Of a stretch of 64,000 nt of DNA, positions 826-58,158 are shown piece after piece. This DNA comes from Acidobacteriota bacterium. Its GTDB lineage: Bacteria; Acidobacteriota; UBA890; WLXD01. Position numbers and translations under genes: made by a program. The stretch spans positions 968,063 to 1,032,062 of the forward strand of contig CBDFKO010000002.1 of NCBI GenBank assembly GCA_965248845.1, in the 5' to 3' direction. The first letter of the stretch is position 1; every line of letters starts with the position of its first letter. The notes under the pieces are model-generated. The model was not told where the DNA came from. It was given only the letters and a program-made list of their open reading frames with translations, and did no database searches.

Positions 826-902
826 GGAGGCGATCTGCGCGCGATCCGGACTTGAACGGCGTGCGGCGCTCAGCAGTACCTCGCTTCCAGCCGGCGAAAC
901 CG

Positions 903-959
903 CCGCACCAGCAGGCCGTGGTGAAATCTGACGGATCTGGCTATGCCACGGTCTCCTAG
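903..959. repeat. Micro copy (G) of the CTAG-terminated MITE family; its terminal CTAG supplies the frr stop codon
   Basis: caccagcaggccgtggtgaaatctg ... gccacggtctcctag matches the left and right terminal motifs of the other copies. Confidence 0.5.
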
Positions 960-1513
960 ATGGTCAGGAGCTCCTGACGCTTGTTTTCGGCGACCTCGTC
1001 GATCTCGGCACAGAACTTGTCGGTCAACTCCTGTACCTGCCCATGAGCCTGGCGCTCCTCGTCCTGGGAGACCTCCTTGTCGTGCTCGAGCTTCTTGACC
1101 TGCTCGTTAGAGTCACGCCGTACTTGCCTGATCGCAGTCTTGCCGTCCTCTGCGGCGACGCCGACCAAGCGGGCCAGGTCGTGGCGCCGTTCCTCGGTGA
1201 GCTCCGGGATCGGGATACGGATCACCTGGCCGTCGTTGTTCGGGTTGAGGCCGAGATCCGACTGCAGGATCGCCTTCTCGATCGCTCCGATCGAGCTCTT
1301 GTCATAGGGCTGCAGCTGCAGCAGCTGCGGCTCGGGCGCCGCCATGTTGGCAAGCTGATTCAGCGGCGTGCTGGTGCCGTAATAGTCGACGTGGATATCG
1401 TCCAGAATCGAGATGTTGGCGCGGCCGGTCCGGATGGCGCGTAGCTCACGGGCAACGGCGTCCACCGCGGCGTGCATGCGACGCTGCGCGTCGAGCAGAG
1501 TCTCGTTGAGCAT
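956..1513 (-). CDS. frr: Ribosome recycling factor
   Basis: 185-aa ORF with full-length RRF similarity; sits in conserved frr-pyrH-tsf-rpsB synteny. Confidence 0.95.
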   Translation of the reverse strand: MLNETLLDAQRRMHAAVDAVARELRAIRTGRANISILDDIHVDYYGTSTPLNQLANMAAPEPQLLQLQPYDKSSIGAIEKAILQSDLGLNPNNDGQVIRIPIPELTEERRHDLARLVGVAAEDGKTAIRQVRRDSNEQVKKLEHDKEVSQDEERQAHGQVQELTDKFCAEIDEVAENKRQELLTI

Positions 1514-1546
1514 CTCCGACCTCCTGTTCGAGTCTTATTAGTACTC

Positions 1547-2290
1547 CTATCCGACCAACTCGGGCTCCTCGTCGACGATCAGCGAACCGATCGCTTCACC
1601 CCGTACTGCGCGCACAATATTACCGGATTCGCACATGTTGAAGATCAGGATGGGAAGCCCGTTCTCCTGGCAGTGTGTGACGGCCGCCGTATCCATGACG
1701 CGCAGCCGGCGATCCAGAACTGCTTGAAAGGTAGCGCGCTCGATGTGCTGGGCGGTGGCATCGATCTCCGGGTCTGCCGTATACAGGCCGCCTACCTTGG
1801 TCCCCTTCATCACGATGTCCGCACCGATCTCGAGTGCCCGCAGCGCCGCCGCGGTGTCGGTGGAGAAATACGGATTTCCGGTTCCGGCAGCGAAGATGAC
1901 GACGCGTTGCTTGGCCAGATGACGGATCGCCCGGCGCCGAATGAACGGCTCGGCGACCTTGTCCATCCGCAGCGCCGACATGACCCGGGTTTCGAGGCCA
2001 CGCTTCTCCAGCGCATCCTGCAACGCGAGGCTGTTCATGACGGTGGCGAGCATGCCGATGTAGTCGGCGCTCACCCGGTCGATGCCCAGGTCGTCGGCGC
2101 GGATCCCGCGGAAGATGTTGCCGCCACCGATCACGATGCCGATCGTGGTGCCGGCTGCGTGCGCCTGCGCGATCTGGTCGGCAACGCCACGGGCCACCGA
2201 CACGTCGATTCCGTAACCCTGCTCGCCCATCAGGGCCTCGCCAGAGAGCTTGAGCAGGACCCGGCGATATAGAACGGTGGCCTCGGACAT
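1547..2290 (-). CDS. pyrH: Uridylate (UMP) kinase
   Basis: 247 aa with the KLSGEAL and GGGNIFRG motifs of the amino-acid kinase family. Confidence 0.95.
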   Translation of the reverse strand: MSEATVLYRRVLLKLSGEALMGEQGYGIDVSVARGVADQIAQAHAAGTTIGIVIGGGNIFRGIRADDLGIDRVSADYIGMLATVMNSLALQDALEKRGLETRVMSALRMDKVAEPFIRRRAIRHLAKQRVVIFAAGTGNPYFSTDTAAALRALEIGADIVMKGTKVGGLYTADPEIDATAQHIERATFQAVLDRRLRVMDTAAVTHCQENGLPILIFNMCESGNIVRAVRGEAIGSLIVDEEPELVG

Positions 2291-2301
2291 CGGCGCCTCG
2301 G

Positions 2302-2934
2302 CTATTCGGCGGGATCCGCCGCAGCCGCCAGGATGGTGTCGGAATCGCCGATCGCCATGCGCGCGAATCGACGCACGACGATGTTCTCGCCGATCCGGGC
2401 CATCGCCTCGGCAAGCATGTCGCCCACCTTTTGATCAGGATCCTTGACGAAGCTCTGCTCCAACAAGCAAACCTCGGAGTAATACCGCTTCACCTTGCCG
2501 TCGACGATCTTCTCGACGATATGCTCCGGCTTGCCCGCGGCGATCGCCTGCTCCCGGTAAAGCTGCCGCTCGGATTCGAGCGACGAGCCGTCGATGTCGT
2601 CGCGGGAGACGTAGCGTGGACTGGCAGCCGCCACTTGCATCGCCAGGTCCCGCGCCAGCGCAACGAAGTCCTCGTTGCGTGCCACGAAGTCGGTCTCGCA
2701 GTCGAGCTCGAGAACGACGGCGATCTTGCCGCCCATGTGCACATAGCTTTCGATCCGCCCCTCACGGGCCGCCCGGCCGGCGCGCTTGGCTGCCTTGGCC
2801 TTGCCCCTGGTGCGTAGGATCTTGATCGCCTCGTCGATGTCTCCACTGGCCTCCTTGAGGGCGCCCTTGCAATCCATGATGCCGACGCCGGTACGCTCGC
2901 GGAGCTCCTTCACTGCTGCTGCGGTGATTTCCAT
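2302..2934 (-). CDS. tsf: Elongation factor Ts
   Basis: The MEITAAAVKELRERTG...MDCKGAL N-terminus is canonical EF-Ts. Start taken at the internal ATG (2934) rather than the ORF-track start at 2946. Confidence 0.9.
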   Translation of the reverse strand: MEITAAAVKELRERTGVGIMDCKGALKEASGDIDEAIKILRTRGKAKAAKRAGRAAREGRIESYVHMGGKIAVVLELDCETDFVARNEDFVALARDLAMQVAAASPRYVSRDDIDGSSLESERQLYREQAIAAGKPEHIVEKIVDGKVKRYYSEVCLLEQSFVKDPDQKVGDMLAEAMARIGENIVVRRFARMAIGDSDTILAAAADPAE

Positions 2935-3021
2935 CCTTTTCGTCACTTGCTGGGTTTCGGATCTAGGAGGCCTTGCGGCGCGACCGTGAAAATTCTAAAT
3001 CGCGGACCCCGGAGCCAGGGA

Positions 3022-3831
3022 TCAAGCGTCGGCCTGCGCCCCGGTCTCAGGCTCGGTCTCGTTGGCCGACCCCTCGGTTGACTCGCTGTCGGCCTCGGCC
3101 TTCTTGGCCTCCTCGGCTTCACGCGCCGCGGCCTCGAGGCGATCGTCGTAGGTGGCACGACCCGCGATCACCGCGTCGGCGGCGATCCGGCAGAACAGAC
3201 GGATCGACCGGATTGCGTCGTCGTTACCCGGCACGACGTGCGCAATCCCGTCGGGATCGCAGTTGGTATCGACGACCGCTACGACAGGAATGCCCAGCTT
3301 TAGCGCCTCGTCGGCGGCGATGCGCTCGCGCCGGATATCCATTACGAACACGACGTCGGGAAGCCCTCCCATCTCCTTGATGCCTACGAGGTTGCGCTTG
3401 AGCTTGAAGAGCTCCCGCTCGAGCTTCAGCACTTCCTTCTTCGTAAGCAGATCGAAGCGCCCGTCGGCCGCCATGGCCTCGAGATCAACATACCGGTCGA
3501 TGGAGCGACGGATTGTCTGATAGTTGGTCAGCAGACCGCCCAGCCAGCGATGGTTGACGTAGTACTGGCCGCAGCGTGTGGCCTCTTCGGCGATGATGTC
3601 CTGCGCCTGACGCTTGGTGCCTACGAAGAGCACCCTGCCGCCCTGCGCGGACTCCTCCTCCAGGAACTCGAGGGCGCCTCGCCAGGCGTTCTGCGTTTTC
3701 TGCAGGTCGATGATGTAGATGCCGTTGCGCTTGCCGAAGATGAAGGGCTTCATCTTCGGGTTCCAGCGCCCGGTCTGGTGGCCGAAATGAACGCCGGCCT
3801 CAAACAGGTCTCGCAGCGTCACGCTGAGCAA
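3022..3831 (-). CDS. rpsB: 30S ribosomal protein S2
   Basis: The [15 protein letters not shown]-like N-terminus is diagnostic of S2; acidic C-terminal tail. Confidence 0.95.
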
Positions 3832-3843
3832 GTCGTCCTCCTA

Positions 3844-4236
3844 CTACCGCTTGCTGAACTGGAAGCGGGCTCGCGCGCCGCGCTGGCCATACTTCTTGCG
3901 CTCTTTCTCGCGCGCGTCGCGAGTCAGAAAGCCGTGCTCCTTGAGCTTCGGCCGAAGATCCGGGTCTGTCGCCAGCAGGGCCCGTGCCACGCCGTGGCGC
4001 ACTGCACCGGACTGGCCGCTGAGACCGCCCCCCTTGACCGTGACGAACAGATCGAACTTGTTGAGCTGGTCAACGACCTCGAGCGGTCGCATCGCGTCTG
4101 CCCGCTGCAACGCGCTCGGGAAGTAATCGTCGAACTCGCGACTATTGACCGTCACCTGCCCGGTACCCGGACGCAAGAAGACGCGGGCCACCGCGTTCTT
4201 CCGCTTGCCCGTTCCATAGAACTGCGTGTCTGCCAT
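3844..4236 (-). CDS. rpsI: 30S ribosomal protein S9
   Basis: 130 aa, GTGKRKNAVARV...GGGLSGQSGA...KKYGQRGARARFQFSKR. Confidence 0.95.
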   Translation of the reverse strand: MADTQFYGTGKRKNAVARVFLRPGTGQVTVNSREFDDYFPSALQRADAMRPLEVVDQLNKFDLFVTVKGGGLSGQSGAVRHGVARALLATDPDLRPKLKEHGFLTRDAREKERKKYGQRGARARFQFSKR

Positions 4237-4250
4237 CGATCTACTCCGGT

Positions 4251-4679
4251 CTACTCGGCGAACGGCTCGGGCTGCTGCGCCGCGTGCGGGTGGTCCGGCC
4301 CGGCGTAGACTTTCAACTTGCGGTACATCTGGCGGCCCACACGGGTCTTGGGCAGCATGCCCTTGACCGCGAGCTCCACGATGCGCTCGGGGTGCGTCTC
4401 CATCATGCGTTGGGCTCGGATCTCGGTGAGCCCACCCGGGTAGCCGCTGTACCGGTAGTACTTCTTGTCTTCCATTTTGGCGCCCGTGAGCACCACCTTG
4501 TCGGCGTTCACCACCACCACGTGATCACCCGTGTCGAGGAACGGGGTGTAGGTCGGCTTGTGCTTGCCCATGAGTAGGCGCGCCACTGTCGTGGCCAGCC
4601 GACCAAGGACCGCACCCTCGGCGTCGAGCGTCAGCCAGCGGCGCTCGATCTCCTTGGCGGAAGGGAACGGGGTACTCAT
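4251..4679 (-). CDS. rplM: 50S ribosomal protein L13
   Basis: 142 aa, [16 protein letters not shown]...YRYSGYPGG motifs; rplM-rpsI pair. Confidence 0.95.
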
Positions 4680-4746
4680 CGGTTCATCACTCTCGGTTCA
4701 TCCCCCAGCAGCGGGCCGGGGTTCGATCACGGGTCGGCCGGCCGCC

Positions 4747-6843
4747 TCAGGCTCCGGCGGCCACCTTCTCCTCTTCGGTGAGTGCCTTCAACGAGAGTCG
4801 AATTCGGTTGGGCGCCTCGATCTTCACTACCTTGACCACGATCTCGTCGCCCTCGGCAACGTGCTCGCGCATGTCCTGGACGTGCTGCTCCGAAACCTCG
4901 GAGATGTGCAGTAGGCCGTCGGTGCCCGGCAGGATCTCGACGAAGGCGCCGAAGTCCTTGATCGAGCGGACCTTGCCGCGATAGACGCGGCCGACCTCGG
5001 CCTCCTGGGTGAGATCCTCGATCATCCTCCGGGCGGCATCACAGGCATCGGTGTCGGGCGAGGCGATCTGCACGGTGCCGTCGTCCTCGACGTTGATCTT
5101 GCAGCCGGTCTCCTCCTGCATCTGCCGGATGATGCGGCCGCCGGGCCCGATGATGTCGCGGATGCGATCGACCGGGATCTTCAGGCTGATGATTTGCGGC
5201 GCCCAGCGGCTGGTCTCCGGTCGCGGCGCCGACAGAGCCTCGCTCATCTTGCGCAGGATGTGCAGCCGGTTCTCGCGCGCCTGGTTCAGCGCCGTCTCGA
5301 AGATCTCCCGGGACAGACCACTGACCTTGATGTCCATCTGCAGCGCCGTGATCCCTTGCGGCGTCCCGGCGACCTTGAAGTCCATGTCACCGTAGTGATC
5401 CTCCTCGCCGGCGATGTCCGACAGGATCGCTACCGTGTCGCCCTCCTTCATCAACCCCATGGCCACACCGGCGACCGGACCCCGGATCGGTACCCCGGCG
5501 TCCATCAGCGACAGCGTACCGCCACAGATCGTTGCCATCGACGAGGAGCCGTTCGACTCGAAGATTTCCGATACCGTGCGGATCACGTACTGCCACTCGT
5601 CCTCGGGCGGGATCACGGGCGAGAGCGCCCGCTCCGCCAGGTTCCCGTGGCCGATCTCGCGCCGGCCGGGCCCTCGCATGAAGCGCGCCTCGCCGACGCT
5701 GAAGGGCGGGAAATTGTAGTGGAGCAGGAAACGCTTCCAGTACTCCCCGTTGTACTCCTCGACCTTCTTGGCATCGTCGCTCGTGCCCAAGGTCGTGGTC
5801 ACAAAGGCCTGCGTCTCTCCGCGGGTGAACAACGCCGAGCCGTGCGCTCGGGGTGAATAGCCGACCTCGCAGGTGATCGGACGCACCTCGTCAAAGGCAC
5901 GACCGTCGAAGCGAACGCCGTCCTCGAGGGCCGACTTGCGGGTGTAGCGCTTGATCAGCTCACCGAGCGCCTCGCTCACGACTGGCCCGAGCTCCTCATC
6001 CTCGGCGACCTGCTCCTTGATGGCGGCCTTCATCTCGCCCATGCGATCGCGGCGCTCGATCTTGTCGCGGACCTGCAGCGCCTCGCTGATGGGCCCGCCG
6101 GCGAGCTCCTCGATGCGTGATACCAGAGCCGGGTCGAGCACATCGGGCACGAACTCGAACTTCTCGATGCTCGCCTGCTCGCGCAGCTTCTCCTGGACGT
6201 CGATCACGGTGTCGATAAACGGCTGTACGAACTCAAGCGCTCCGATGATCTCGTCCTCGGAGACCTCCTCGGCCCCCGCCTCCACCATCATCACGGCGTC
6301 GCGGCGGGCAGCCAGCACGAGATCGAGTCGGCTTTCCTCCATCTGGCTGCTGGTCGGGTTGAGTACGTAGTCGCCGTCGATCATGCCGATGCGAAAGGCA
6401 CCGAACGGAGTGTCGAACGGGATCCGGGACAGGTTGAGCGCGAAGGAGGCGCCCACTTTGGCCAGAACACCCGGATCGTTTTCGCCATCCGCCGACAGGA
6501 CCATGCCGATGACCTGGGTCTCGTGGCGGTATCCCTTCGGAAACAAGGGCCGGATCGTCCGGTCGATCATCCTGCAGGTCAGGATCTCCTTCTCGGAGGG
6601 CCGTCCCTCACGCTTGAAGAAGCCCCCGGGGATCTTGCCCCCCGCGTAGGTCCACTCACGGTAGTCGACAGTGAGCGGCAGGAAGGAGGCCTCACGCGGC
6701 TTGCGCGCCATCACCGCTGTCACCAGAACCTTCGTGTCGCCGCACGAGACCACAACTGCCCCGTCGGCCTGGCGGGCGATTCTGCCCATCTCGACCTCGA
6801 TGGTAATGCCGCCGAGCTCGATCGTTTCACGCACTATGCTCAT
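4747..6843 (-). CDS. pnp: Polynucleotide phosphorylase (polyribonucleotide nucleotidyltransferase)
   Basis: Two RNase PH domains, KH and S1 domains. Start taken at the internal ATG 6843 (MSIVRETIELGG); the ORF-track start at 6948 adds 35 non-conserved residues. Confidence 0.95.
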   Translation of the reverse strand: MSIVRETIELGGITIEVEMGRIARQADGAVVVSCGDTKVLVTAVMARKPREASFLPLTVDYREWTYAGGKIPGGFFKREGRPSEKEILTCRMIDRTIRPLFPKGYRHETQVIGMVLSADGENDPGVLAKVGASFALNLSRIPFDTPFGAFRIGMIDGDYVLNPTSSQMEESRLDLVLAARRDAVMMVEAGAEEVSEDEIIGALEFVQPFIDTVIDVQEKLREQASIEKFEFVPDVLDPALVSRIEELAGGPISEALQVRDKIERRDRMGEMKAAIKEQVAEDEELGPVVSEALGELIKRYTRKSALEDGVRFDGRAFDEVRPITCEVGYSPRAHGSALFTRGETQAFVTTTLGTSDDAKKVEEYNGEYWKRFLLHYNFPPFSVGEARFMRGPGRREIGHGNLAERALSPVIPPEDEWQYVIRTVSEIFESNGSSSMATICGGTLSLMDAGVPIRGPVAGVAMGLMKEGDTVAILSDIAGEEDHYGDMDFKVAGTPQGITALQMDIKVSGLSREIFETALNQARENRLHILRKMSEALSAPRPETSRWAPQIISLKIPVDRIRDIIGPGGRIIRQMQEETGCKINVEDDGTVQIASPDTDACDAARRMIEDLTQEAEVGRVYRGKVRSIKDFGAFVEILPGTDGLLHISEVSEQHVQDMREHVAEGDEIVVKVVKIEAPNRIRLSLKALTEEEKVAAGA

Positions 6844-7038
6844 TCCGCTCGTCCTTTGAGCCGCACTGGGGCTCTCGTCAGGGTCGCGCTGAAGCGCAGC
6901 TGGGTTGCCCTGGTCCGAGGTATGAATCGCTAGAGTGCGTTCCGCCAAGACCGCGTCAACCGACTAACCGCTAGTTCCCTTCGCCGCGTCCGCTTTTTCC
7001 GCTTCGGCCGGCACCAACCGGCTCTATCGATTCGTAAC

Positions 7039-7293
7039 CTACCGCCGCAGCCCGAGCTCTTGGATCAGGCCTTGATAGCGCGCCACGTCCTCGCGGCACA
7101 GGTAGTCCAGCAAGCGCCGACGCTTGCCGACCAGCATCAGGAGTCCGCGCTGCGTGGCGAAGTCCTTCTTGTGAGCTTTCATATGTTCGGTGAGGTGCTT
7201 GATCCGCGAGGTCAGCTGGGCAACCTGCACCTCTGGCGAGCCCGTGTCCGAAGGGTGTCGCCGAAAATCGTCGAATGCAGTTTCCATCATCAA
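7039..7293 (-). CDS. rpsO: 30S ribosomal protein S15
   Basis: [29 protein letters not shown]...RRRLLDYL is canonical S15; lies upstream of pnp. Confidence 0.9.
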
Positions 7294-7412
7294 TCTTCTT
7301 CTGATTTCCGTTCCGCTTGCAGATACCCGAGCGTGGACACACGAATGCCTCGGTTGAATCGGGTTAGGCTAGCATAGGCCAATGGGGCTGTAAAACGCAC
7401 TCGATTCCGTTA

Positions 7413-8390
7413 CTAGTGTGACGCGGCGGAGTTCTCTTGTCTTATGGCTTTGGCGAGGATCTGGTCGGCGGACTTGAGCCAAAGGAAGGGCTCGGAGCCG
7501 TCGTTCCAGGCTCGGATGAAGCGGTGGATGGCCTTGATCAGGACATCGACGCTGCTGAAGCTGCCGCGCCGGACGGCCTGCGAGGTGAGGATGCCGAACC
7601 AGGTCTCCACCTGATTCATCCAGGAAGCGGAAGTGGGCGTGAAGTGACGCGTGAACCGCGGGTGTTGCTCGAACCAGGCCTCGACCTTGGGCTGGGTGTG
7701 GGTGCCGTAGTTGTCCAGCACCAGGTGGATCTCGCCCTCGGGGTAGGTGCGGTCGATCAAGCGTAGGAAGCGAAGAAACTCCTGGTGGCGGTGCCGCTGC
7801 ATGCAGGTGCCCAGGATCTCGGCGGTGGCTAGGTTCAACGCCGCGAACAGCGTCGTGGTGCCGTGGCGTCTGTAATCGTGGGTGCAGCGCTCTGGATCGC
7901 CGCGGCGCATGGGCAACATCGGCTGAGTCCGGTCCAGAGCCTGGATCTGGCTCTTCTCGTCCACGCACAGCACCAGCGCCCCCTGGGGCGGGTGCAGGTA
8001 CAGCCCCACGATGTCGGTGACCTTGTCCTGCAGGAGTGGATCGGCGGAGTACTTGAAGGTCTCGGTGCGATGGGGCTGCAGGCCGTTGCGCCGCCAGATC
8101 CGCAGGATCGTCGAAGGGCTCGCATCGACCTGTTTGGCGAGCCGCTGTGCGCTCCAATGGGTTCGGCTCGGAGGCCTCTCCAGGGTTGCGGCGATGATCT
8201 TGGCTTCCCGCACGGCGTCGTAGGTGCGCACACGACCAGAGCGCGGCTCGTCACCGAGATCCTCGATGCCCTGCTTGGCTGCGCGAGCGCGCCACATGCC
8301 CACGGTCTGTCGGGAGGTCTCGAGGCGCTCGGCGATCTGCTGGTTCTGCAGCCCCTGCTCGGCAAGCAGGATGATGTGGGCTCGGAACAC
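7413..8390 (-). CDS. IS630-family DDE transposase (catalytic part; GTG start)
   Basis: 325 aa with a DDE_3-like core ([12 protein letters not shown]...[10 protein letters not shown]...WMNQVE). About 55% identical to the second IS630 transposase at 56910..58001. Confidence 0.85.
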   Translation of the reverse strand: MFRAHIILLAEQGLQNQQIAERLETSRQTVGMWRARAAKQGIEDLGDEPRSGRVRTYDAVREAKIIAATLERPPSRTHWSAQRLAKQVDASPSTILRIWRRNGLQPHRTETFKYSADPLLQDKVTDIVGLYLHPPQGALVLCVDEKSQIQALDRTQPMLPMRRGDPERCTHDYRRHGTTTLFAALNLATAEILGTCMQRHRHQEFLRFLRLIDRTYPEGEIHLVLDNYGTHTQPKVEAWFEQHPRFTRHFTPTSASWMNQVETWFGILTSQAVRRGSFSSVDVLIKAIHRFIRAWNDGSEPFLWLKSADQILAKAIRQENSAASH

Positions 8391-8573
8391 CTGCCGCTGC
8401 TGTGAGCTCGGCGCGTCGATTACTCCCTGGAGCCGCTGCCCGCTGCTGCCCGGTCAACGAAATCTCCGGTGCTACCCTGGGCATCGTGGCCTCCTGTCCC
8501 GACAAGTTTACTGTCGAGACAAGGAAGTCTTAATATGCCATATAAGTCAAGCTAATTACGACGCGTTACACTA
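7414..8573. mobile_element. IS630-family insertion sequence (copy 1, ~1.16 kb) inserted into a CTAG between truB and rpsO, with TA duplication
   Basis: Flanks are tacTAgtgtgacgcgg on the left and cgcgttacacTAgcgcc on the right. Terminal inverted repeat gtgtgacgcg / gtgtaacgcg. Reconstructed empty site is aCTAGc. Confidence 0.8.
8391..8505 (-). other. N-terminal HTH segment of the IS630 copy-1 transposase, encoded in a different frame from the catalytic part (frameshift)
   Basis: MPRVAPEISLTGQQRAAAPGSNRRAELTAAAGV aligns to the N-terminus of copy 2 ([17 protein letters not shown]...[13 protein letters not shown]). The catalytic ORF lies in the -1 frame relative to it. Confidence 0.45.
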
Positions 8574-8670
8574 GCGCCGCGTCGTCGTCGAGCCCATTCG
8601 ACCCTTTGGCGAGCCGGCGGGCGCATACGTGATCGGCCTCGAATCCCGTCGCGACGAGGCCGCGACGGCG

Positions 8671-9600
8671 TCACTGCAGCACCACCCTCGGCTGCAACAT
8701 GCCCCCCGGGCGAATCTCCGCGGCCGCGATCATGGAGCCTTGCTGGTCCAGGATCCGTACCCAGCCCCCGGCCCCGGTGCCGGTGATGATGTCGCCGTCC
8801 GCACCGGCTCTGCGCTCGACGATGTGGCGGGGCTCGATGACGCCGCCGTTCCGGAGCCGGTGCAGCCCCTCCTCGCCGACCCGGGCCACAGGCCAGGTCG
8901 GAAGCATCTCGGCGCATGGAATCACAGCCGCCAGCAGATCGTCGCGCGAGACCTGCTCCAGAGAGTCCAGCAGCATGGCGCGGTCGAGGCCGAAGCCCCC
9001 GACTCCGAGACGACGCAGTGACTCCAAGTGCGAGGGATAGCCCAAGGCCTCGCCCAGGTCGCGGGCCAGCGTACGTACGTAGGTGCCCGAGCCGCAGTGC
9101 ACCCGCAGATCGATGCGCTCCCCTTCAACGGCGAGCATCTCCAGCGCGTGGATTTCCACACGAATCAGATCGTGCACCACGCTTTCGCCGCGTCGCGCCC
9201 GCTTGTACGCAGGCTGACCACGGATCTTCTTGGCCGAGTACACCGGCGGGATCTGCTCGATCGGCCCGCGAAAGCGCTCCAGTGCCTGCTCGATGGCCGT
9301 CGCGTCGAGCGGCTCGACCGTGACCGGCCCCTCCACGATCTCCCCCTCGGCGTCGTAAGTATCTGTCGCCCAGCCGAGGCGTACGCTGCAGTCGTACACC
9401 TTGTCTTGGTGCTGCAGGAAGCGACTCAGGCGTGTCGCACCACCGACACAGACGAGCAGCACCCCGGTAGCCTGTGGGTCGAGCGTGCCGGTGTGCCCAG
9501 CCCGCGCATCCAGCTGCTTGCGAACGCGCACGACAACGTCGTGGGAGGTCAGCCCTGCCGGCTTGTCGAGAACCAGCATCCCAGCGACGGCAAGGCTCAT
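8671..9600 (-). CDS. truB: tRNA pseudouridine(55) synthase
   Basis: GMLVLDKPAGLTSHDVV...HTGTLDPQATGVL with the catalytic Asp motif. Start at ATG 9600; the ORF-track extension to 9687 is not conserved. Confidence 0.9.
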   Translation of the reverse strand: MSLAVAGMLVLDKPAGLTSHDVVVRVRKQLDARAGHTGTLDPQATGVLLVCVGGATRLSRFLQHQDKVYDCSVRLGWATDTYDAEGEIVEGPVTVEPLDATAIEQALERFRGPIEQIPPVYSAKKIRGQPAYKRARRGESVVHDLIRVEIHALEMLAVEGERIDLRVHCGSGTYVRTLARDLGEALGYPSHLESLRRLGVGGFGLDRAMLLDSLEQVSRDDLLAAVIPCAEMLPTWPVARVGEEGLHRLRNGGVIEPRHIVERRAGADGDIITGTGAGGWVRILDQQGSMIAAAEIRPGGMLQPRVVLQ

Positions 9601-10571
9601 TCGTCGGCCCCTCCCGAGTCCAACACGGCCCGAATAGCGCTCATCAAGGACGCGTAGGCGTGCTCGAACTCGCCGAGGATCTGGCACCCAGCGGCGCGCC
9701 GGTGCCCCCCGCCACCGTGTGCCGACGCCAACTCGGCCACATCGATACTGCCGTCGGAGCGAAAGGATATGCGGAACACATCCGGCTCCGGCTCCTTGAA
9801 CAGCAGGCTGACACGAACCCCGGCGATTCCCTGTGCGTGGTTGATGACACCCTCGGTATCGGTCGTCCCCCGCGCCTCGAACTGATCCCGTCCCAACCGC
9901 ATCCAGGCGATCTGACCGCCTTGCTCCAGTGTCAGTGTCGTGAGCGCATCGCCCATCAACTGGACTCGACCAGCCGGCACGTTGCCAAAAACCGACGAGG
10001 CGATCGGCTCGGGGCGAGCACCCGCGGCCACCATGTCGGCCGCGAAGTAGAGCGCCGATGCGTCGGTATTGGAGTGACGGAACGATCCGGTGTCGGTGAG
10101 CAGCGCCACATACAACTGCGCAGCCATGTCGGCGTCGATCTCGGCCCCCAGCGCGCCGATCAGCTCGCCGACCATCATTCCGACCGCCGCGACCGACGCG
10201 TCGATCCAGTTGACATGCGCGTACATCCCGTTCTTGGTGTGGTGATCGATGTTGAGCGAGGGCAGCGCCTCGAGCCCTTCGAGGCCGGTCCGCGCGAAGT
10301 CGCTACACTCGACCAGAATCGCGCTGGCACACCCCTCCGGCGGCGCGCTCGCCGTCTCGATGCGCTCGGCACCCGGAAGCCAGAAGTGGCGATCGGGCAA
10401 GGCCTGGCCGATCACGACCCGCGTTCGCTTGCCGCGCTGCTCTAACGCCGCAGCCAAGGCCAACGAGGACCCCAGGGAATCCCCGTCAGGGTTCATATGG
10501 GATCCGATCACGAAGTCGTCGTGGGCCTCGAGCCAGGTGACCACGTCGGCGACGTCCTGCACGCTAGTCAT
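9597..10571 (-). CDS. nrnA: DHH-family phosphoesterase (NrnA-like oligoribonuclease/pAp phosphatase)
   Basis: DHH motifs (GSHMNPDGDSLGS, NIDHH) and a DHHA1 C-terminus (GGGHRRAAG). Start at ATG 10571; its stop overlaps the truB start in an ATGA arrangement. Confidence 0.8.
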   Translation of the reverse strand: MTSVQDVADVVTWLEAHDDFVIGSHMNPDGDSLGSSLALAAALEQRGKRTRVVIGQALPDRHFWLPGAERIETASAPPEGCASAILVECSDFARTGLEGLEALPSLNIDHHTKNGMYAHVNWIDASVAAVGMMVGELIGALGAEIDADMAAQLYVALLTDTGSFRHSNTDASALYFAADMVAAGARPEPIASSVFGNVPAGRVQLMGDALTTLTLEQGGQIAWMRLGRDQFEARGTTDTEGVINHAQGIAGVRVSLLFKEPEPDVFRISFRSDGSIDVAELASAHGGGGHRRAAGCQILGEFEHAYASLMSAIRAVLDSGGADE

Positions 10572-10959
10572 CGTCACCCCCCGCCTGACCGGTGTCGAAC
10601 GAGTCCGGCACCTCGACCTCGCGAACCGGATTCTCCTCCAGCAGATGCTCCAGCCGTTCGCTCGCGTCGAGGGTCCGATCCTCGATGAAGTGTAGCTCTG
10701 GGGCCTCACGCAGACGCAGGCGCGCGGCCACTTGACGGCGGAGGAAGGCTCCGGCCCACCGCACGGCCTGCATCGATTCCGCGCGCGCCTCCTCGTCACC
10801 GAAAGTGCTGACCCAGACCTTGGCGTGGTGCAGGTCGTTGCTCATCCGCACCTCGGTGACCGTCACGAAGCCGAGCCGAGGATCGCCGACCTCGCGCATG
10901 AGCAGATCCGCCAGCTCTCGCCGAATCTGATCCGCCACTCTGCGAGGCCGAAATGACAT
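10564..10959 (-). CDS. rbfA: Ribosome-binding factor A
   Basis: 131 aa with the RbfA KH-like core (RVADQIRRELADLL...FVTVTEVRMSNDLHHAKVWVS). Confidence 0.9.
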   Translation of the reverse strand: MSFRPRRVADQIRRELADLLMREVGDPRLGFVTVTEVRMSNDLHHAKVWVSTFGDEEARAESMQAVRWAGAFLRRQVAARLRLREAPELHFIEDRTLDASERLEHLLEENPVREVEVPDSFDTGQAGGDDD

Positions 10960-10963
10960 GGCT

Positions 10964-11157
10964 AGCAGGCCTTCGTGAAGCGCTGATGGATCTCGCGAGT
11001 ACGTCCTGCGGGCGAGGGCAAGGAGCGCCGACGAGTCGATGCGACAACATCGTCGAGGCGGCGCGACACCGCCACCATCCCGCTCGAACCCTCCGGGCAG
11101 CCGCCTGTACTCCTTGGCGGCGCAACCCGACCCATCACACTTTCACCACGGCCTGCT
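10964..11157. repeat. MITE-like element, copy A (~194 bp), CTAG at both ends with imperfect ~25-bp terminal inverted repeats; its left end supplies the rbfA SD-like GAAGG
   Basis: Left end CTAGcaggccttcgtgaagcgctgatgg; right end ccatcacactttcaccacggcctgCTAG. Internal 40-bp block cgccaccatcccgctcgaaccctccgggcagccgcc is shared with the 18302-18469 element. Confidence 0.65.
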
Positions 11158-11198
11158 AGCGGCCTAACCAGACCCATGAGAGCCTCACCAAGATCCTG

Positions 11199-11480
11199 CT
11201 AGAGGTACTCTGTCTCGACGCGCGTCAGCAGCGCCTCGGCGCTGCGCTCGACCTCGTCGACCAGCTTTTCGAACAACCCCTCCAACCGTGGCCGGCTGTT
11301 GGAAACCGAGACCGCCGCGATACACGAGCGCTGCCACAGGTCCTGGTAGGCAACCTCTGCCACCGCCACATTGAAGCGTGACGTCAGGCGGTGCAGGAGT
11401 CTCTTGATCACGCTGCGCTTGTCCTTGAGGCTGCGACAAGCGGGCAAGTGCAACTCTAGGGTGCAGGCCCCGATAACCAT
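11199..11480 (-). CDS. DUF503 (YlxP-like) protein of the infB operon
   Basis: MVIGACTLELHLPACRSLKDKRSVIKRLL is typical of DUF503; lies between infB and rbfA. Start at ATG 11480; stop TAG lies inside a CTAG. Confidence 0.8.
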   Translation of the reverse strand: MVIGACTLELHLPACRSLKDKRSVIKRLLHRLTSRFNVAVAEVAYQDLWQRSCIAAVSVSNSRPRLEGLFEKLVDEVERSAEALLTRVETEYL

Positions 11481-11502
11481 CACACTTTCACTACGGCCTC
11501 CT
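11457..11502. repeat. Miniature copy (B, ~46 bp) of the MITE family spanning the infB stop and the DUF503 start
   Basis: CTAGggtgcaggcc..ccatcacactttcactacggcctcCTAG; 27 of 29 nt identical to the copy-A right end. It encodes the last residues (SLSRRP) and TAG stop of infB, and the ATG of DUF503. Confidence 0.6.
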
Positions 11503-13641
11503 AGAGAGGCTCGGGCGGATCTCCTTGAGGACGAAGAACTCAATCATGTCGCCGACCTTGACATCGTTGAAGTTCTCGAGCGCGATACCGCACTCGTAAC
11601 CCTGGCCCACCTCGGCGACGTCGTCCTTGAAGCGTCGCAGCGATCTGACCTGCCCCTCGTAGACGATCCTCGAGTCCCGCACCAGACGCACCTTGGCGGC
11701 GCGTGTCACCTTGCCCCCGGTCACGTAGCAGCCGGCGATGGAGCCGATCCGGGGAATGCGGAAAGTCTCGCGCACCTCGGCCTGTCCGAGCTCCTCGTCC
11801 TCGAAGGTGGGGTCGAGCTTACCCACCATCGCCTGCTTGACATCGTCGATGAGCTGGTAAATGACCGTGTAGAGCCGAAGATCGACGCCGGCGCTGGCTG
11901 CGATATCCGCCACGCCACGCTCCGGGCGCACGTTGAATCCCACGATGATCGCCTCGGACGCCGAGGCCAGCAACACATCGTGCTCCGAGACGCCACCGAC
12001 CGCCGCGCGGATGATCTGCACCTCGACTTTGTCGCCTGACAGCTTGCCCAGCGCGTCACGCAGCGTCTCGGTTGAGCCCTGGGTGTCGGCCCTGAGCACG
12101 ACCGAAAGCTTCACCCGACCACCGGCTTCGATGCGCGCGTGCAGATCGGCGAGCGTCAGGCGCGTGCCACCGGCCAATGATTCGCGCCGCTGTTTGTCCC
12201 GCCGCAGTTCGGCCACCTTGCGCGCCAACGACGCTTGCTCGACGACCTGGAAGGAGTCGCCGGCTCCCGGCACGCCGGAGAAGCCGAGCACCTCGACCGC
12301 CGTCGCCGGTCCGGCCTCCTTCACGGGGTTCCCGTAGGAGTCGAACATGGCACGGACCTTGGCGCTCTCGGCGCCCGCGACCAGGCTGTCGGCTACGGCG
12401 AGCGTTCCTGCCTGGACCAGCACCGTCGCGACCGGGCCGCGTCGCCGGTCGAGCTCGGCCTCGAGCACGACGCCATGCGCCGCGATCTTGGGGTTCGCAC
12501 GCAACTCCAAGAGCTCCGACGACAGAATGATCATCTCGAGCAGCCCATCGAGGTTCTCTTTGGTCTTGGCCGAGACCGCAACGCAGACGGTATCGCCGCC
12601 CCAATCCTCCGGCGTCAAGTCACGGTCGACCAGCTGCTGCTTGGCTCGGTCGACGTTGGCCTCGGGACGATCGATCTTGTTGACCGCCACGATGATCGGC
12701 ACGTTGGCCGCGCGGGCGTGGTCGATGGCTTCCACGGTCTGCGGCATGACTCCGTCGTCGGCGGCGAGCACCAGGACCACCAGATCGGTGACCTGTGCGC
12801 CGCGGGCTCGCATTCGCGTGAAGGCCTCGTGGCCCGGGGTATCGATGAAGACGATTCGGTTGCCGTTCCATTCCACCTCGGACGCGCCGATGTGCTGCGT
12901 GATCCCGCCCGCCTCGCGCGCCACAACGTTTGTCTGCCGGATCGAATCGAGCAGATGGGTCTTGCCATGGTCGACGTGCCCCATGATGGTCACGACGGGC
13001 GCTCGGGGTTCGAGATCGTCGCTGCTACCGGTCTCGATTTCGCCGAGCAGGACCTCGTCCCGCCCCAACAACTGCAGGGCCACTCCGTGCTCGGCAGCGA
13101 TCTCCACGGCCACATCGGCATCCAGCGCCTGGTTCACGTTGGCCATGGCACCGCGGCCCATCAATTCGCGGATGATCTCCGCGGGGCTGATTCCCATGGC
13201 CTCGGCCAGTTGCCCGACCGTAGCACCCTCCTCGACCGCTACCGCGCGAGCCGGTGCCGCGGCTGCGGCAGGCTCCGGCTCGACCTCCTGCTCCGGCTCG
13301 GGCTCGGGCTCTGCGTCGGCTGCTGCCCCGGGCTCGGCCTCGGCCTCGGCCTCGAGTTCTCCTTCGGGCTCGGGCTCGGGCTCAACTTCGGGCTCGGGCT
13401 CGGGCCCTACTTCGGGCTCGGCCTCTGCCTCAGGCTCGATCTCAATCTCAGCTTCAGGCCCGGCTACCAGGGGCTCGGGGCCTTGCCCCGATTCTCCGGC
13501 AAGCGCCTGCCGCACGCGAGCCGCTTCCTCCTCGGACACCGAGTTGGCATGGCTCTTGACCGCTACGCCCAGCTCGTTGAGGGCCTGGAGGACCACCTTG
13601 CTCTCGACGTCCAGTTCCCGGGCGATCTCGTAAACCCGCAT
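11491..13641 (-). CDS. infB: Translation initiation factor IF-2
   Basis: 716 aa with the GTPase domain ([17 protein letters not shown]) and IF2 C-terminal domains. Short N-terminal region rich in EP/EA repeats. Confidence 0.95.
13254..13445. repeat. Tandem GC-rich coding repeats (ctcggg/ctcggc units) encoding the [12 protein letters not shown] tract at the IF-2 N-terminus
   Basis: Visible tandem hexamer/dodecamer periodicity inside infB. Confidence 0.6.
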
Positions 13642-13720
13642 TCCTGTGAATCCTTCCGCTTCCTGTTGCCGCTAACTACGCGTTCCGCTCGATGTTTCAG
13701 GCTTCGATGCCGAAGCGCTC

Positions 13721-15313
13721 TCAGAATCGTCCATCGTCCGAGTCCTCACCCAGCGCCGGCTCCTGGTCAGCCGCAGCGTCGGGCTCCGCAACCTCGGCGG
13801 CCCCCGATTCATCGGCCTCGGTGACCTCGGGCTCCGCAACCTCGGTGGCTTGCGGCTCGGCGGGCTCCGGCTCGGCGACCTCGGTAACCTCCGGCTCGGC
13901 GGCCTCGGCGGGCTCCAGCTCGGCAACCTCCGTGGTCTCCGGCTCGGCAGCCTCGGTAACCTCCGGCTCAGCAGCCTCGGTGTCCTCCGGTTCCACGGGC
14001 GCGATGGCGACCTCGGGGGCCTCCTGCGTCCCCTCGATCAGGTCACGCGCTTGCTGATAGATCTTCAACGCCGACTTGGGTCCGATACCGGCCACCGCGA
14101 GGAGCGCATCCTCACCGGCCAGCACGATCGAGCGTGCCGTCTCGAAGCCGGCCTCGCGCAAGGCGGCGGCTGCGGTCGCGCCCACCGCCTCTAGCTGCTC
14201 GACACCCGGTGCCGCCGAGGTCGGCGCGGCTACCGGCTTTTTCTCCGTATCTGCGGCCGGCTGTCCGGCGCCGCCGACATCGATCTTGCAGCCGAGCAGC
14301 TTGCCGGCCAAGCGCACGTTCTGCCCGCGCTTGCCGATGGCAAGGGAAAGTTGGTCCTCGTTCACGATGACCTGAAGATGCTGTGCGGCCTCTCCGGTCA
14401 CTTCGTCGACTACGTCGACCTCCTTCACATGATTGACCCTTGCCGGCTTGAGCGCGTTGATCGCGAACTGGAAGCGATCCGGCGACCACTCAACGATGTC
14501 GATCTTCTCGCCGCGCAGCTCACGGATGATGGCCTGGACCCGAGAGCCCCGCATGCCGACGCACGCGCCGACGGGGTCGACGTCCGGCTCGTTGGACTGC
14601 ACCGCCACCTTGGCGCGGTCACCGCCTTCGCGCACGGCGCCCTTGATCACGACCGTCTGGTCGTAGATCTCGGGGACCTCCATCTCGAACAGCCGCTTGA
14701 GCAACTCGGGGCTGTTGCGCGACACTACGACCATCGGTCCGCGCGTGGCCTGCAGCACCTCGATGATGACCAGCCGAATGCGGTCGCCGATGTTGTAGTG
14801 TTCCGCCCGCGATTGCTCGCGCCGCGGCAAGATGGCCTCGGTTCGGCCCAGATCGACCATCATGTCACCGCGCTCGAAGCGCTTGACGATCCCGGTCAGG
14901 AGCTCGCCGACCCGGTCGACATACTCCACATATATATTGTCGCGCTCAGCATCGCGGACTTTCTGGAAAATGACCTGCCGGGCCGCATGGGCCGCGATGC
15001 GCCCGAGCTGATCGGTGGACATCGAGCGCCGTAGCTCGTCACCCACTTTCGGGTCGTCCATTCCCTCGGCTCGCGCCTCCTCGACGGTCAGCTCCGCAAG
15101 CGGGTCTTCGACCACTTCGACGACACGTTTCACCGCGGCCAGCTCGACCTCGCCGGTCTCAGGGTTCAGCGAAGCCTCGAGGTAGTCCTCGGTCCCATAG
15201 AACTTCTGGGCCGCTACCGCCATGGCCTCTTCGACCGCCTCGATGATGACCTGCGGCTCGATGTTTTTCTCACGACCGATCTGCTCGATCGTCTGGAGTA
15301 GCATCTGGGCCAT
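13721..15313 (-). CDS. nusA: Transcription termination/antitermination factor NusA with an acidic repeat C-terminal extension
   Basis: NusA N-terminal, S1 and two KH domains, then (EPEVTEAA)-like octapeptide repeats at the C-terminus. Confidence 0.95.
   Translation of the reverse strand: MAQMLLQTIEQIGREKNIEPQVIIEAVEEAMAVAAQKFYGTEDYLEASLNPETGEVELAAVKRVVEVVEDPLAELTVEEARAEGMDDPKVGDELRRSMSTDQLGRIAAHAARQVIFQKVRDAERDNIYVEYVDRVGELLTGIVKRFERGDMMVDLGRTEAILPRREQSRAEHYNIGDRIRLVIIEVLQATRGPMVVVSRNSPELLKRLFEMEVPEIYDQTVVIKGAVREGGDRAKVAVQSNEPDVDPVGACVGMRGSRVQAIIRELRGEKIDIVEWSPDRFQFAINALKPARVNHVKEVDVVDEVTGEAAQHLQVIVNEDQLSLAIGKRGQNVRLAGKLLGCKIDVGGAGQPAADTEKKPVAAPTSAAPGVEQLEAVGATAAAALREAGFETARSIVLAGEDALLAVAGIGPKSALKIYQQARDLIEGTQEAPEVAIAPVEPEDTEAAEPEVTEAAEPETTEVAELEPAEAAEPEVTEVAEPEPAEPQATEVAEPEVTEADESGAAEVAEPDAAADQEPALGEDSDDGRF
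13790..13995. repeat. Tandem ~24-bp coding repeats at the nusA 3' end (acidic octapeptide repeats)
   Basis: Repeating cctcggtaacctccggctcggc(a/g)g units. Confidence 0.6.
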
Positions 15314-17522: not shown

Positions 17523-18302
17523 GTGAGCACGGCCGAGCCTCCGGGCCTGCCGGAGACAGCTTCGGCTGCCGGCCGGCGAGAGAGTCTGCCCGAGATGTCC
17601 CTCATGGATCATCTCACCGAGCTGCGCGGGCGTTTGCTGGTCTCCGTGATCGCCGTCGTGCTCGGCGCCATCGGCGCCTGGTTCTACGCCGACGAGCTGT
17701 ACCGGCTGCTGACCCGACCCGTCGTGGAAATCTTGCCGGAACAGGACAATCGGCTGGCGTTCCTGTCGTTGACCGAGCCCTTCGTCCTCTACCTCAAGGT
17801 GGCCGGCCTGGCTGGGCTGTTCGCGGCCTCACCGGTCGTCATCTACCAGGGTTGGATGTTCGTGGCCCCCGGTCTGTACCGAAACGAGAAGCAGCACGCT
17901 TTGCCCGTCGTAGCTGCCTCCGCCGCGTGCTTTTTCGCCGGCGGCGCTTTCGGTTACTTCGTGCTGTTCCCGGTGATGGCCAACTTCTTCCTCGATCTCG
18001 GCTCCGACTTTCGCCAGGTTCTTACCGTGAACCGTCTCTTCGGCTTCCTCGTGCGAACGCTGCTGGGGTGCGCCCTCGTGTTCGAATGGCCCATCGTGGT
18101 CTTCTTTCTGGCACGCCTGGGGATCCTGACGGCCGGGGCAATGTGGAGCGGTCTCGGCTACGCCATCGTCGCGATCTTCGTCATTGCCGCCGTGGTCACG
18201 CCCACCCCCGACGCGCCCACACAGATTATCCTGGCCACGCCGATGCTATTGCTGTACTTGCTCGGTATCGGGATCGCCTGGTTGGTGCAGCCGCGCGACT
18301 AG
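17523..18302 (+). CDS. tatC: Sec-independent protein translocase TatC
   Basis: Six-TM TatC fold with the HLTELRGRL motif. Start is either GTG 17523 or ATG 17595; stop TAG lies inside the CTAG at 18299-18302. Confidence 0.9.
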   Translation: MSTAEPPGLPETASAAGRRESLPEMSLMDHLTELRGRLLVSVIAVVLGAIGAWFYADELYRLLTRPVVEILPEQDNRLAFLSLTEPFVLYLKVAGLAGLFAASPVVIYQGWMFVAPGLYRNEKQHALPVVAASAACFFAGGAFGYFVLFPVMANFFLDLGSDFRQVLTVNRLFGFLVRTLLGCALVFEWPIVVFFLARLGILTAGAMWSGLGYAIVAIFVIAAVVTPTPDAPTQIILATPMLLLYLLGIGIAWLVQPRD

Positions 18303-18469
18303 TGCTCCTGTACACAAGTACGGTGACGTTTGTTGGAGCGGGATGGTGGCGGATGCCAGGCGCACCGACGAGGCGATGTGAGCGCATCGTCGAGCGAGGT
18401 GCAACGCCGCAGACGCCACCATCCCGCTCCAACCCTCCGGGCAGCCGCCGTACTTGTGTACAGGAGCAC
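18302..18469. repeat. 168-bp nested-palindrome MITE with 22-bp perfect terminal inverted repeats that resemble IS630 ends
   Basis: Terminal repeats gtgctcctgtacacaagtacgg / ccgtacttgtgtacaggagcac, similar to the IS630 copy-2 end TAgtctcctgtaacag. Inner 20-bp inverted repeat gttggagcgggatggtggcg / cgccaccatcccgctccaac. Left flank is the CTAG of the tatC stop. Shares a ~65-bp internal block with MITE A. Confidence 0.65.
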
Positions 18470-18478
18470 TGGTGTAAG

Positions 18479-40534: not shown

Positions 40535-40600
40535 GGAGACCGTGCTAGAGTTCAGCCTTCTTGGGGCGCCCCTGCTCCGCCTCCCATCTGCCCGCTCCCG

Positions 40601-47515: not shown

Positions 47516-48475
47516 ATGAGTGAACGCACAGAGACAGTGCTGATCACAGGTGGTGCCGGATTCATCGGCTCGCACCTCGCCGAGCATCTGCTGGGCCAGG
47601 GTGCCCGCGTGATCGTCATGGACAACTTGCTCACCGGCACCGCGAGCAACGTAGCGCGTTTCGCCAACCGCGACTACCTGTTCATCCAGCACGACGTCAC
47701 CAACTACATGTTCATCGATGAGCCGGTCGACTACGTCCTCCATTTCGCCTCGCCGGCGTCCCCGATCGACTATCTCCGCTACCCGATCCAGACGCTCAAG
47801 GTCGGTGCGCTGGGGACGCACAAGGCACTCGGCCTGGCGCGCCACAAGAACGCGGTCTTCATGTTGGCCTCGACCTCCGAGGTGTACGGCGACCCCCAGA
47901 TCAACCCGCAGCCCGAGTCCTACTGGGGGCACGTGAATCCGATCGGCCCGCGCGGCGTCTACGACGAGGCCAAGCGCTTTGGCGAGGCGATCACCATGGC
48001 CTACCACCGCAGCCACGGGCTGCGGACACGGATCGCGCGAATCTTCAACACCTACGGGCCTCGAATGCGGGTCGACGATGGACGGGCGGTGCCCAACTTC
48101 CTCATGCAGGCGCTTACGGCCGAGCCGATCACGGTGTACGGGGACGGCTCCCAGACGCGTTCCTTCTGCTACGTCGAGGACACGGTGCGTGGCCTCGTGG
48201 CACTGATGTGCTCGGCGGTCAGCGAACCGGTGAACGTCGGAAACCCGGCCGAGATCTCCATTCTGGACATCGCCCGGTTGATCGTCGACAAGACCGAGTC
48301 GAACAGCGAGATCGTGTTTCACGATCTTCCGGTCGACGATCCCAAGGTGCGACGCCCCGACATCGGCCGCGCGCACGCGGAGCTGGGTTGGGACCCGCAG
48401 ATCGACCTCGCCGAAGGTCTCGAGCTCACGATTCCCTGGTTCCGCCAGCAGCTCGCCAAGCGCCAGACCGCCTAG
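47516..48475 (+). CDS. UDP-glucuronate decarboxylase (UDP-xylose synthase), SDR family
   Basis: [10 protein letters not shown] Rossmann motif, catalytic YDEAKR and UXS-type conservation. Stop TAG lies within the CTAG that was targeted by IS5. Confidence 0.9.
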
Positions 48476-49780: not shown

Positions 49781-49804
49781 CTAGGAGACCGTGCTTCGGC
49801 CCCT

Positions 49805-56870: not shown

Positions 56871-56879
56871 GGTCTCCTA
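56850..56879. repeat. MITE-family right-end copy (D) immediately left of IS630 copy 2
   Basis: gacccaccacactttcaccacggtctccTA. Confidence 0.6.
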
Positions 56880-58080: not shown

Positions 58081-58127
58081 TAGCGGCCCGTGGTGAAAGT
58101 GTGATTAAGCGGCCCGCCGCTTGGTAG
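58081..58127. repeat. MITE-family left-end/micro copy (E) immediately right of IS630 copy 2
   Basis: TAgcggcccgtggtgaaagtgtgatt...cttggTAG. Together with D it forms a 16-bp perfect palindrome, cacactttcaccacgg / ccgtggtgaaagtgtg, centred on the TA that was duplicated. Confidence 0.6.
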
Positions 58128-58158
58128 GCCGACGATCTGGCGCTACCCTGAAGCCGGC

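Follow-up and report, generated by a model that had tools for sequence, protein, structure and literature searches.

We analysed a 64,000-nt stretch of DNA from an Acidobacteriota bacterium (GCA_965248845.1, contig CBDFKO010000002.1, positions 968,063-1,032,062 of the forward strand; G+C 66.8%), hereafter the window, in which short repeats lie at the ends of infB, frr, rbfA and a DUF503 (YlxP-like) gene. These repeats are terminal inverted repeats (TIRs) of a transposable element of the miniature inverted-repeat type (MITE), about 279 bp long, that has CTAG as its target. In our best overall explanation, which we put at a probability of about 0.85, a CTAG-targeting MITE coincided with stop codons and its copies later decayed. 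A previous interpretation made from the letters alone (the sequence-only reading) held that the repeats had rewritten the termini of these translation genes. The causal arrow is largely the reverse: insertion is directed at CTAG, and stop codons are a source of CTAGs. Element-derived ends were retained by our analysis for the IF-2 tail and stop and for the rbfA leader, while comparison with orthologues assigned the frr stop and both the stop and the start of the DUF503 gene to the ancestral sequence.

MITE copies at four gene junctions

The 19-mer core of the repeat, CACACTTTCACCACGGCCT, occurs seven times in the window at up to three mismatches, against 0.02 expected, and an nhmmer profile built from the window copies gave nine significant matches there, including 11457-11504 and 908-950. 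Scanning one genome per species for CACACTTTCACCACGGNCT yielded a family of at least 106 loci, the majority of them in a few Acidobacteriota metagenome-assembled genomes (MAGs), and nearly every copy had the form ...CTAG-CAGGCCGTGGTGAAAGTGTGGTGGGTCTGG...CCAGACCCACCACACTTTCACCACGGCCTG-CTAG... Inverted TIR pairs (47 in total) were spaced either by about 279 bp (33 pairs) or by about 160-190 bp (14 pairs), and their flanks were unrelated. The full-length consensus, of 279 bp, has two hairpins in its interior and TIRs that are about 45 nt long; variants measure 160-190 bp. CTAG precedes 129 of 169 MITE termini and YTAR 142 of 169, the YTAR flanks other than CTAG being TTAG (9), CTAA (3) and TTAA (1); both flanks are CTAG in 32 of 48 pairs. 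Short size, TIRs, dispersed copies with a constant target and empty orthologous sites are all as in a MITE, although the relatives are distant and the exact sequence of the empty site is inferred. No description of this Acidobacteriota MITE family was found in the literature; MITEs overlapping gene 3′ ends are already known (Coxiella QMITEs). The consensus gave no BLAST match to plasmids. An initial candidate, in which the core repeat was a palindrome centred on CTAG and similar to repetitive extragenic palindromes (REPs), was dropped once full-length copies showed that it consists of abutting MITE ends.

The pieces found at the four junctions are given below with the genes that they adjoin. 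Gene identities in 900-15300, where all genes lie on the minus strand, come from Pfam and the list of open reading frames (ORFs). Each terminus was aligned to a TIR consensus made from other genomes only and compared with 5000 shuffles; the fraction given is that of shuffles reaching its score.

908-959, minus strand: 52-nt MITE remnant, internally deleted, directly 3′ of frr (nhmmer E = 7.5e-06; independent profile E = 4e-4)
908-944, minus strand: right TIR at frr (0/5000)
959 to 946, minus strand: 14-nt left stub at frr (23/5000)
956-1513, minus strand: frr, ribosome recycling factor, RRF (Pfam RRF 1.3e-64)
10564-10959, minus strand: rbfA (Pfam RBFA 1.9e-32; N-terminus MSFRPRRVADQ as in orthologues)
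10962-11159, minus strand: 198-nt MITE copy with CTAG on both flanks (other-genome profile, E = 7.8e-15 for 10962-11085 and E = 9.3e-10 for 11111-11159)
10962-10993, minus strand: right TIR of the rbfA copy (0/5000)
11160-11202, minus strand, read from 11202 to 11160: degenerate 43-nt solo left-TIR remnant at the DUF503 stop (local alignment 0/5000; nhmmer alone E = 2.6)
11199-11480, minus strand: DUF503 (YlxP-like) gene, 93 aa, start ATGGTTATCGGG (Pfam DUF503 1e-28)
11477-11504, minus strand, read from 11504 to 11477: 28-nt left-TIR fragment CTAGGAGGCCGTAGTGAAAGTGTGATGG at infB (0/5000; independent profile E = 4.8e-4; 25/28 identity to consensus)
11491-13641, minus strand: infB, IF-2 (Pfam IF-2 and GTP_EFTU)

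In the frr remnant, the left TIR is represented by its first 14 nt, CTAGGAGACCGTGG, which are fused to about 37 nt from the right TIR; the remnant ends in CTGG, a mutated CTAG. In the 198-nt copy, consensus positions 2-50 are joined to 158-280, positions 51-157 being deleted. This copy was weak when searched with the core of about 45 nt only (nhmmer E = 0.76) and clear with the full-length profile. Going from the DUF503 gene to rbfA, the order is the stop CTAG (11202-11199), the 43-nt solo TIR down to 11160, the 198-nt copy from 11159 to 10962, CC and the rbfA ATG.

Ancestral and element-derived gene ends

We retrieved 80 frr loci and read the 3′ ends of 16, and reached six infB-DUF503-rbfA loci (L001, L003, L110, L111, L113 and L114) via DUF503 homologues of 57-72% identity. 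By nhmmer, MITE similarity was absent from these six loci and from 22 frr loci; one of the six, L110, belongs to a MAG in which the same MITE family is present elsewhere. The suggestion that the insertions are ancient and fixed finds no support here, and the divergence of the infB fragment from the family consensus at only three of 28 positions was likewise counted against antiquity. From these comparisons the insertions appear lineage-specific and not demonstrably ancient.

The frr TAG (958-956) sits in the CTAG at 956-959 that flanks the 52-nt remnant, hence the proposal that the repeat supplies this stop. RRF ends at the same residue in 16 of 16 orthologues (...ELLTI* in the window, ...ELLTL* or ...ELLTI* in the others), however, and in four of the 16, which are repeat-free, the gene closes with GTC TAG and so forms CTAG by itself. 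Thus the frr stop is ancestral and was the target of insertion. The DUF503 gene presents the same arrangement: its TAG (11201-11199) is part of a CTAG followed by the 43-nt degenerate TIR, just as the sequence-only reading had noticed, and the element inserted at the stop-codon CTAG leaving the protein end unchanged, as at frr. The protein has the standard length of its family, homologues being almost all of 92-93 aa, the nearest of them from Acidobacteriota and Vicinamibacterales metagenome bins.

At the other end of this gene, the ATG (11480-11478; ATG(GTNATCGG)) overlaps the last 4 nt of the TIR similarity, and the ccat of the fragment had been taken to provide it. The same start, ATGGTGATCGG against ATGGTTATCGG in the window (pattern ATGGT(G/T)ATCGG), is present in repeat-free L001 and L111 and internally in L113, and the ATG is therefore ancestral. 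Several further readings of this junction were considered and rejected. The continuation of the fragment into DUF503 codons 2-9 (GGCCTGCACCCTAG) is ancestral coding sequence, present in repeat-free L001. A complete mini-element bounded by the CTAGs at 11504 and 11456 was discarded, GGCGCCTGCAC occurring in repeat-free L001 too, as DUF503 codons. The infB-DUF503 spacer of L001 gave no nhmmer match as a decayed TIR. Finally, the AGGAGG of the TIR was dismissed as the Shine-Dalgarno (SD) sequence of the DUF503 gene, the 16 nt between it and the ATG exceeding the canonical distance.

The end of IF-2 has indeed changed. The 28-nt fragment makes up the entire infB-DUF503 junction: it encodes (S)RRP and the IF-2 TAG, and its final 4 nt are the ATGG of the DUF503 gene. 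IF-2 ends with ...PSLSRRP* in the window, four residues beyond the commonest orthologue end, whereas the six orthologues end with ...EIRPTL*, ...GTL*, ...PKL*, ...PTLTS*, ...ATL* and ...PTLS*; this difference indicates that tail and TAG are encoded by the repeat. The reading frame enters the TIR as CTC TCT AGG AGG CCG TAG, out of phase with the TAG of CTAG. The TAG used (11493-11491), 10 nt from the DUF503 start, is TGG in the TIR consensus (G to A); with the consensus sequence, the frame would run on to a TGA as the next codon. The claim that the fragment encodes the stop together with the last six residues is therefore correct for the stop and too generous for the tail, for which it provides only the Arg-Arg-Pro codons and two bases of the Ser codon.

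The other real change lies upstream of rbfA. The MITE copy ends at the CTAG 10962-10965, 2 nt before the rbfA ATG, and the only SD-like sequence, GAAGG (10974-10970), is inside it; coordinates and MITE profile agree with the sequence-only reading on this point. The DUF503-rbfA spacer measures 239 nt in the window, against 74 nt in L110 and 3, 11, 1, -1 and -4 nt in the other five orthologues. Without the insertion the window reads GAGTACCTCTAGCCATGTCATTTCGG, to be compared with GAGTTCTTGTAGGCGATGTCTTTCCG in L001, and removal of the CTAG-to-CTAG block leaves ...TACCTCTAGCCATG..., which closely matches ...TTCTTGTAGGCGATG... of L001. As judged by these alignments, the rbfA leader is replaced by a 239-nt MITE-derived spacer, and the tight DUF503-rbfA juxtaposition of the relatives, which would permit translational coupling, is consequently lost. 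The GAAGG differs by two substitutions from the TIR consensus (CCACGG to CGAAGG). Folded as RNA, the 198-nt copy pairs its TIRs from 11160 to 10961 (minimum free energy -132.5 kcal/mol, z = -4.26), and the resulting stem is predicted to bury GAAGG; the frr stub folds weakly (z = -2.3). Candidate physiological consequences would be the four-residue IF-2 tail and an rbfA uncoupled from the DUF503 gene, with a ribosome-binding region predicted to be buried in a stem.

CTAG targets, stop codons and the mobilising enzyme

CTAG is depleted 2.7-fold in the window (42 observed against 115 +/- 10 expected), and 12 of the 42 (about 30%) are stop codons of coding-like ORFs. Of all the CTAGs that the window still has, a large share are stop codons or ends of mobile elements. 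In relatives, a coding-like ORF runs into 38 of 166 MITE termini: 32 stop exactly at the flanking TAG and six read into the TIR, two of these six with the tail ...SRPW*, in the same frame as IF-2 of the window. The association of MITE ends with stop codons is general in the relatives. Hence an element that targets CTAG, where CTAGs are often within stop codons, will frequently hit a stop codon. In a genome poor in CTAG, an element specific for it would give the reason for a pattern of MITEs at gene 3′ ends that was noted in Coxiella without explanation. For annotation, repeat-derived tails (...SRRP, ...SRPW) and long, structured spacers within conserved operons are to be read as insertion scars, not as lineage-specific features of the genes.

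The course of events may have been as follows. The MITE, presumably moved in trans by a DDE transposase, would insert at CTAG and leave CTAG at both of its ends. Many surviving CTAGs would exist only since a gene ends in C-TAG, and with insertions in coding sequence being purged, surviving copies would pile up at stop codons and in short intergenic spacers. With a CTAG restored at each side of the insertion, the gene upstream still ends at its own TAG and encodes an unaltered protein (frr, DUF503). The downstream gene would lose its native leader, as did rbfA, which now lies behind 239 nt of hairpin-forming element RNA. Later internal deletions would then have produced the 52-nt frr stub, the 43-nt solo TIR and 198-nt copy before rbfA, and the 28-nt infB-DUF503 fragment; at infB, we infer that deletion of the remaining element probably joined the ATGG of the TIR to the ATGG of the DUF503 start through this 4-nt microhomology.

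Three insertion sequences (ISs) of the window bear on the choice of mobilising enzyme.

48472-49784, minus strand: IS5-family IS (Pfam DUF772 and DDE_Tnp_1; transposase 48618-49694), perfect 16-nt TIR CAGGCTGCTGAAAAAC, CTAG on both sides
7413-8574, minus strand: complete IS630-family IS (Pfam DDE_3 and HTH; transposase 7413-8390), TIR TAGTGT(A/G)ACGCG(T/G)CG, at a CTAG between truB and rpsO
about 56880-58083 (region 56838-58161): second IS630-family IS (transposase 56910-58022), TIR TAGTCTCCTGTAACAG, in a CTAG between two inverted truncated MITE termini

The TIR of the IS5-family IS and that of the MITE (CAGGCCGTGGTGAAAG) have no more than CAGGC..TG.TGAAA in common, apart from the CTAG flanks. 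We somewhat favour, on this likeness of ends and flanks, an IS5-family enzyme, with its 4-bp YTAR/CTAG duplication, as the likelier mobiliser; an IS630-family enzyme, duplicating TA within CTAG, would be the alternative. For the IS5-family IS itself, the left CTAG is the stop codon of the ORF 47516-48475, and to the right it is bordered by a MITE stub of 13 nt, CTAGGAGACCGTG. MAG B66T1B5 (L078) has a copy at 92% identity whose CTAA flanks are in line with the YTAR pattern. Loci related to the truB-rpsO region have no IS630 insertion between these genes. In L096, a similar IS end, TGGCCTGTAACAG, likewise follows a MITE terminal CTAG; together with the second IS630 of the window, this indicates that MITE ends act as landing sites for ISs.

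Movement of the same MITE by an IS630/Tc1-mariner-type transposase, through TA duplication and with ends G...C, is a possible but less likely variant. Both IS630s of the window use a CTAG target, one of them between two inverted MITE termini, the discordant flank pairs are those predicted by N-TA-N, and IS630 prefers TA within CTAG (Tenzen and Ohtsubo 1991, as cited in PMC2170065). The MITE TIR, on the other hand, has no similarity to either resident IS630 TIR and begins with CAGGC like that of the CTAG-flanked IS5-family IS, and its non-CTAG flanks are mostly YTAR, the IS5 target consensus (PMC3189936). More remote is the view that the repeats are a motif native to the operon, non-mobile and REP-like or regulatory, such as an operator, a processing site or a terminator hairpin. 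Copies do fold into RNA hairpins and occupy transcribed intergenic positions of one operon; yet no Rfam family reached the gathering threshold anywhere in the window, a promoter and terminator scan of 850-11600 placed no site on the copies, 279-bp copies with TIRs and CTAG flanks stand beside unrelated genes in many genomes, and orthologous operons are without copies. The unit is also far longer than a REP, no search for a REP-associated tyrosine transposase (RAYT) having been made at the loci. We regard a native motif as very improbable.

The sequence-only reading went further than geometry and saw ancient, fixed insertions with possible effects on translational coupling. In a fuller form of this view, the element-derived termini are functionally recruited (stops, start, ribosome-binding site and coupling) and kept by selection. 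That IF-2 uses a TIR-encoded tail and stop, that the infB stop lies so near the DUF503 start and that the only SD-like motif of rbfA arose in the TIR by two substitutions, which could be compensatory, are all compatible with recruitment. Nevertheless we consider it unlikely: position and sequence are ancestral for both stops (frr, DUF503) and for the start of the DUF503 gene, the insertions are absent from all orthologous loci examined, the AGGAGG of the TIR is misplaced for the DUF503 ATG, and the predicted stem sequesters the rbfA GAAGG. Moreover, the end-on-stop geometry recurs beside unrelated genes elsewhere (the 32 of 166 termini above), so that target choice explains it. A bolder proposal is domestication in the nusA-infB-rbfA operon, in which the 28-nt fragment would now be the working infB/DUF503 junction (new tail, stop and 10-nt re-initiation spacer), while the 198-nt hairpin would act as a processing or occlusion switch uncoupling RbfA from DUF503 and IF-2, with GAAGG as a selected compensatory site; we hold this to be doubtful.

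Several observations weigh against the explanation that we prefer, a CTAG-targeting MITE with later decay, or against its IS5-type mobilisation. With a gap of 2 nt, the MITE and IS5 TIRs agree at only about 12 of the 14 terminal positions that align. Neither the window nor the family of at least 106 loci yielded an autonomous IS whose TIRs are identical, and the sole long-range TIR pair (L098, 1282-2652, 1371 bp) encloses a 428-aa ORF which is not transposase-like by eye, no family search having been made. These two termini may belong to a composite bounded by MITEs or to two copies that were truncated. The discordant flanks, TTAG/CTAG in three pairs and GTAG/CTAG in one, are more easily explained by TA duplication or by simple mutation than by duplication of 4 bp. 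Because the orthologues are so distant (57-72% identity for DUF503, 46-69% for RRF), both the empty site and the ancestral stop of infB are reconstructed; CTC TCT AGG at infB may have arisen by gain of 2 nt or loss of 1 nt, or may go back to an ancestral tail ...LS. Lastly, one genome of the lineage was compared.

Related systems and other features of the window

The closest precedents are QMITE1 and QMITE2 of Coxiella burnetii, which overlap by 1-50 bp the 3′ ends of functional genes (ubiB, pntAA, mutT, recN, ruvB and others), give them a stop codon or a short tail, and are IS hot-spots (PMC5896051). They differ from the window MITE in sequence and host; no CTAG target is reported for them and their 3′-end preference is unexplained (PMC5896051). 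In its target the window MITE resembles MITEPsy1/ISPsy2 (Pseudomonas syringae, IS5 family), where the MITE inserts at CTAG (or YTAA) and duplicates it, and the MITEPsy1 TIR contains ...CTGAAAAAG, which resembles the TIR of the IS5-family IS of the window (PMC3189936). MITEPsy1, however, is 100 nt long, its TIRs measure 18 nt and its parent IS is clear, whereas the window MITE has 279 bp, TIRs of about 45 nt and a parent that was not found. The preference for TA in CTAG and the regeneration of the target at the ends are also found in IS630/Tc1-mariner elements and their MITEs (PMC2170065), from whose resident representatives the window MITE differs by its unrelated TIR.

Neisseria Correia elements and enterobacterial repetitive intergenic consensus (ERIC) sequences are likewise small TIR elements co-transcribed in operons, whose long hairpins can affect mRNA processing or flanking expression (PMC3184786, PMC10969869). 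Their sequences and hosts are different, the Correia target is TA, and such effects are demonstrated for them and only predicted here. Rickettsia palindromic elements (RPEs), mobile palindromic repeats that give codons to host proteins (PMC10969869), lie in frame inside genes and contribute tens of residues, unlike the four-residue C-terminal tail of IF-2. REPs and bacterial interspersed mosaic elements (BIMEs) are imperfect palindromes of 20-40 nt, usually with a GTAG/CGTC head and a RAYT transposase (PMC3733652, PMC2817692), as opposed to the 279-bp CTAG-bounded TIR unit of the window, at whose loci RAYT was not searched for.

Stubs of 13-14 nt corresponding to CTAGGAGACCGTG, the left-TIR start with two subfamily-specific substitutions, recur at 946-959, 40536-40548 and 49781-49793, each beside other element ends; they could be excision footprints or repeated deletion products. 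A second type of MITE was also observed.

18299-18470, plus strand: second MITE type, about 170 bp, IS630-like TIR TAGTGCTCCTGTACACAAGTACGG, adjoining the CTAG stop of tatC (TatC by Pfam)

In its interior there is homology to the 279-bp consensus (positions 20-147; nhmmer E = 1.6e-12) and to window 11010-11110, which indicates two MITE families with a common core and different ends.

The remaining genes of the region are listed below; pnp and rpsO are named from position and synteny with annotated genes of relatives, with no Pfam basis.

1547-2290, minus strand: pyrH
2302-2946, minus strand: tsf
3022-3831, minus strand: rpsB
4251-4679, minus strand: rplM
4747-6948, minus strand: pnp (position and synteny)
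about 7040-7293, minus strand: rpsO (position and synteny)
8671-9687, minus strand: truB
about 9597-10560, minus strand: DHH phosphoesterase gene
13721-15313, minus strand: nusA

Imperfect tandem repeats with 12- and 24-nt periods, encoding acidic Glu/Pro-rich low-complexity sequence, were observed in the IF-2 N-terminal region (13240-13455; EPEPE...) and similarly at the NusA C-terminus (13745-14017; AEPEVTEAAEPE...).

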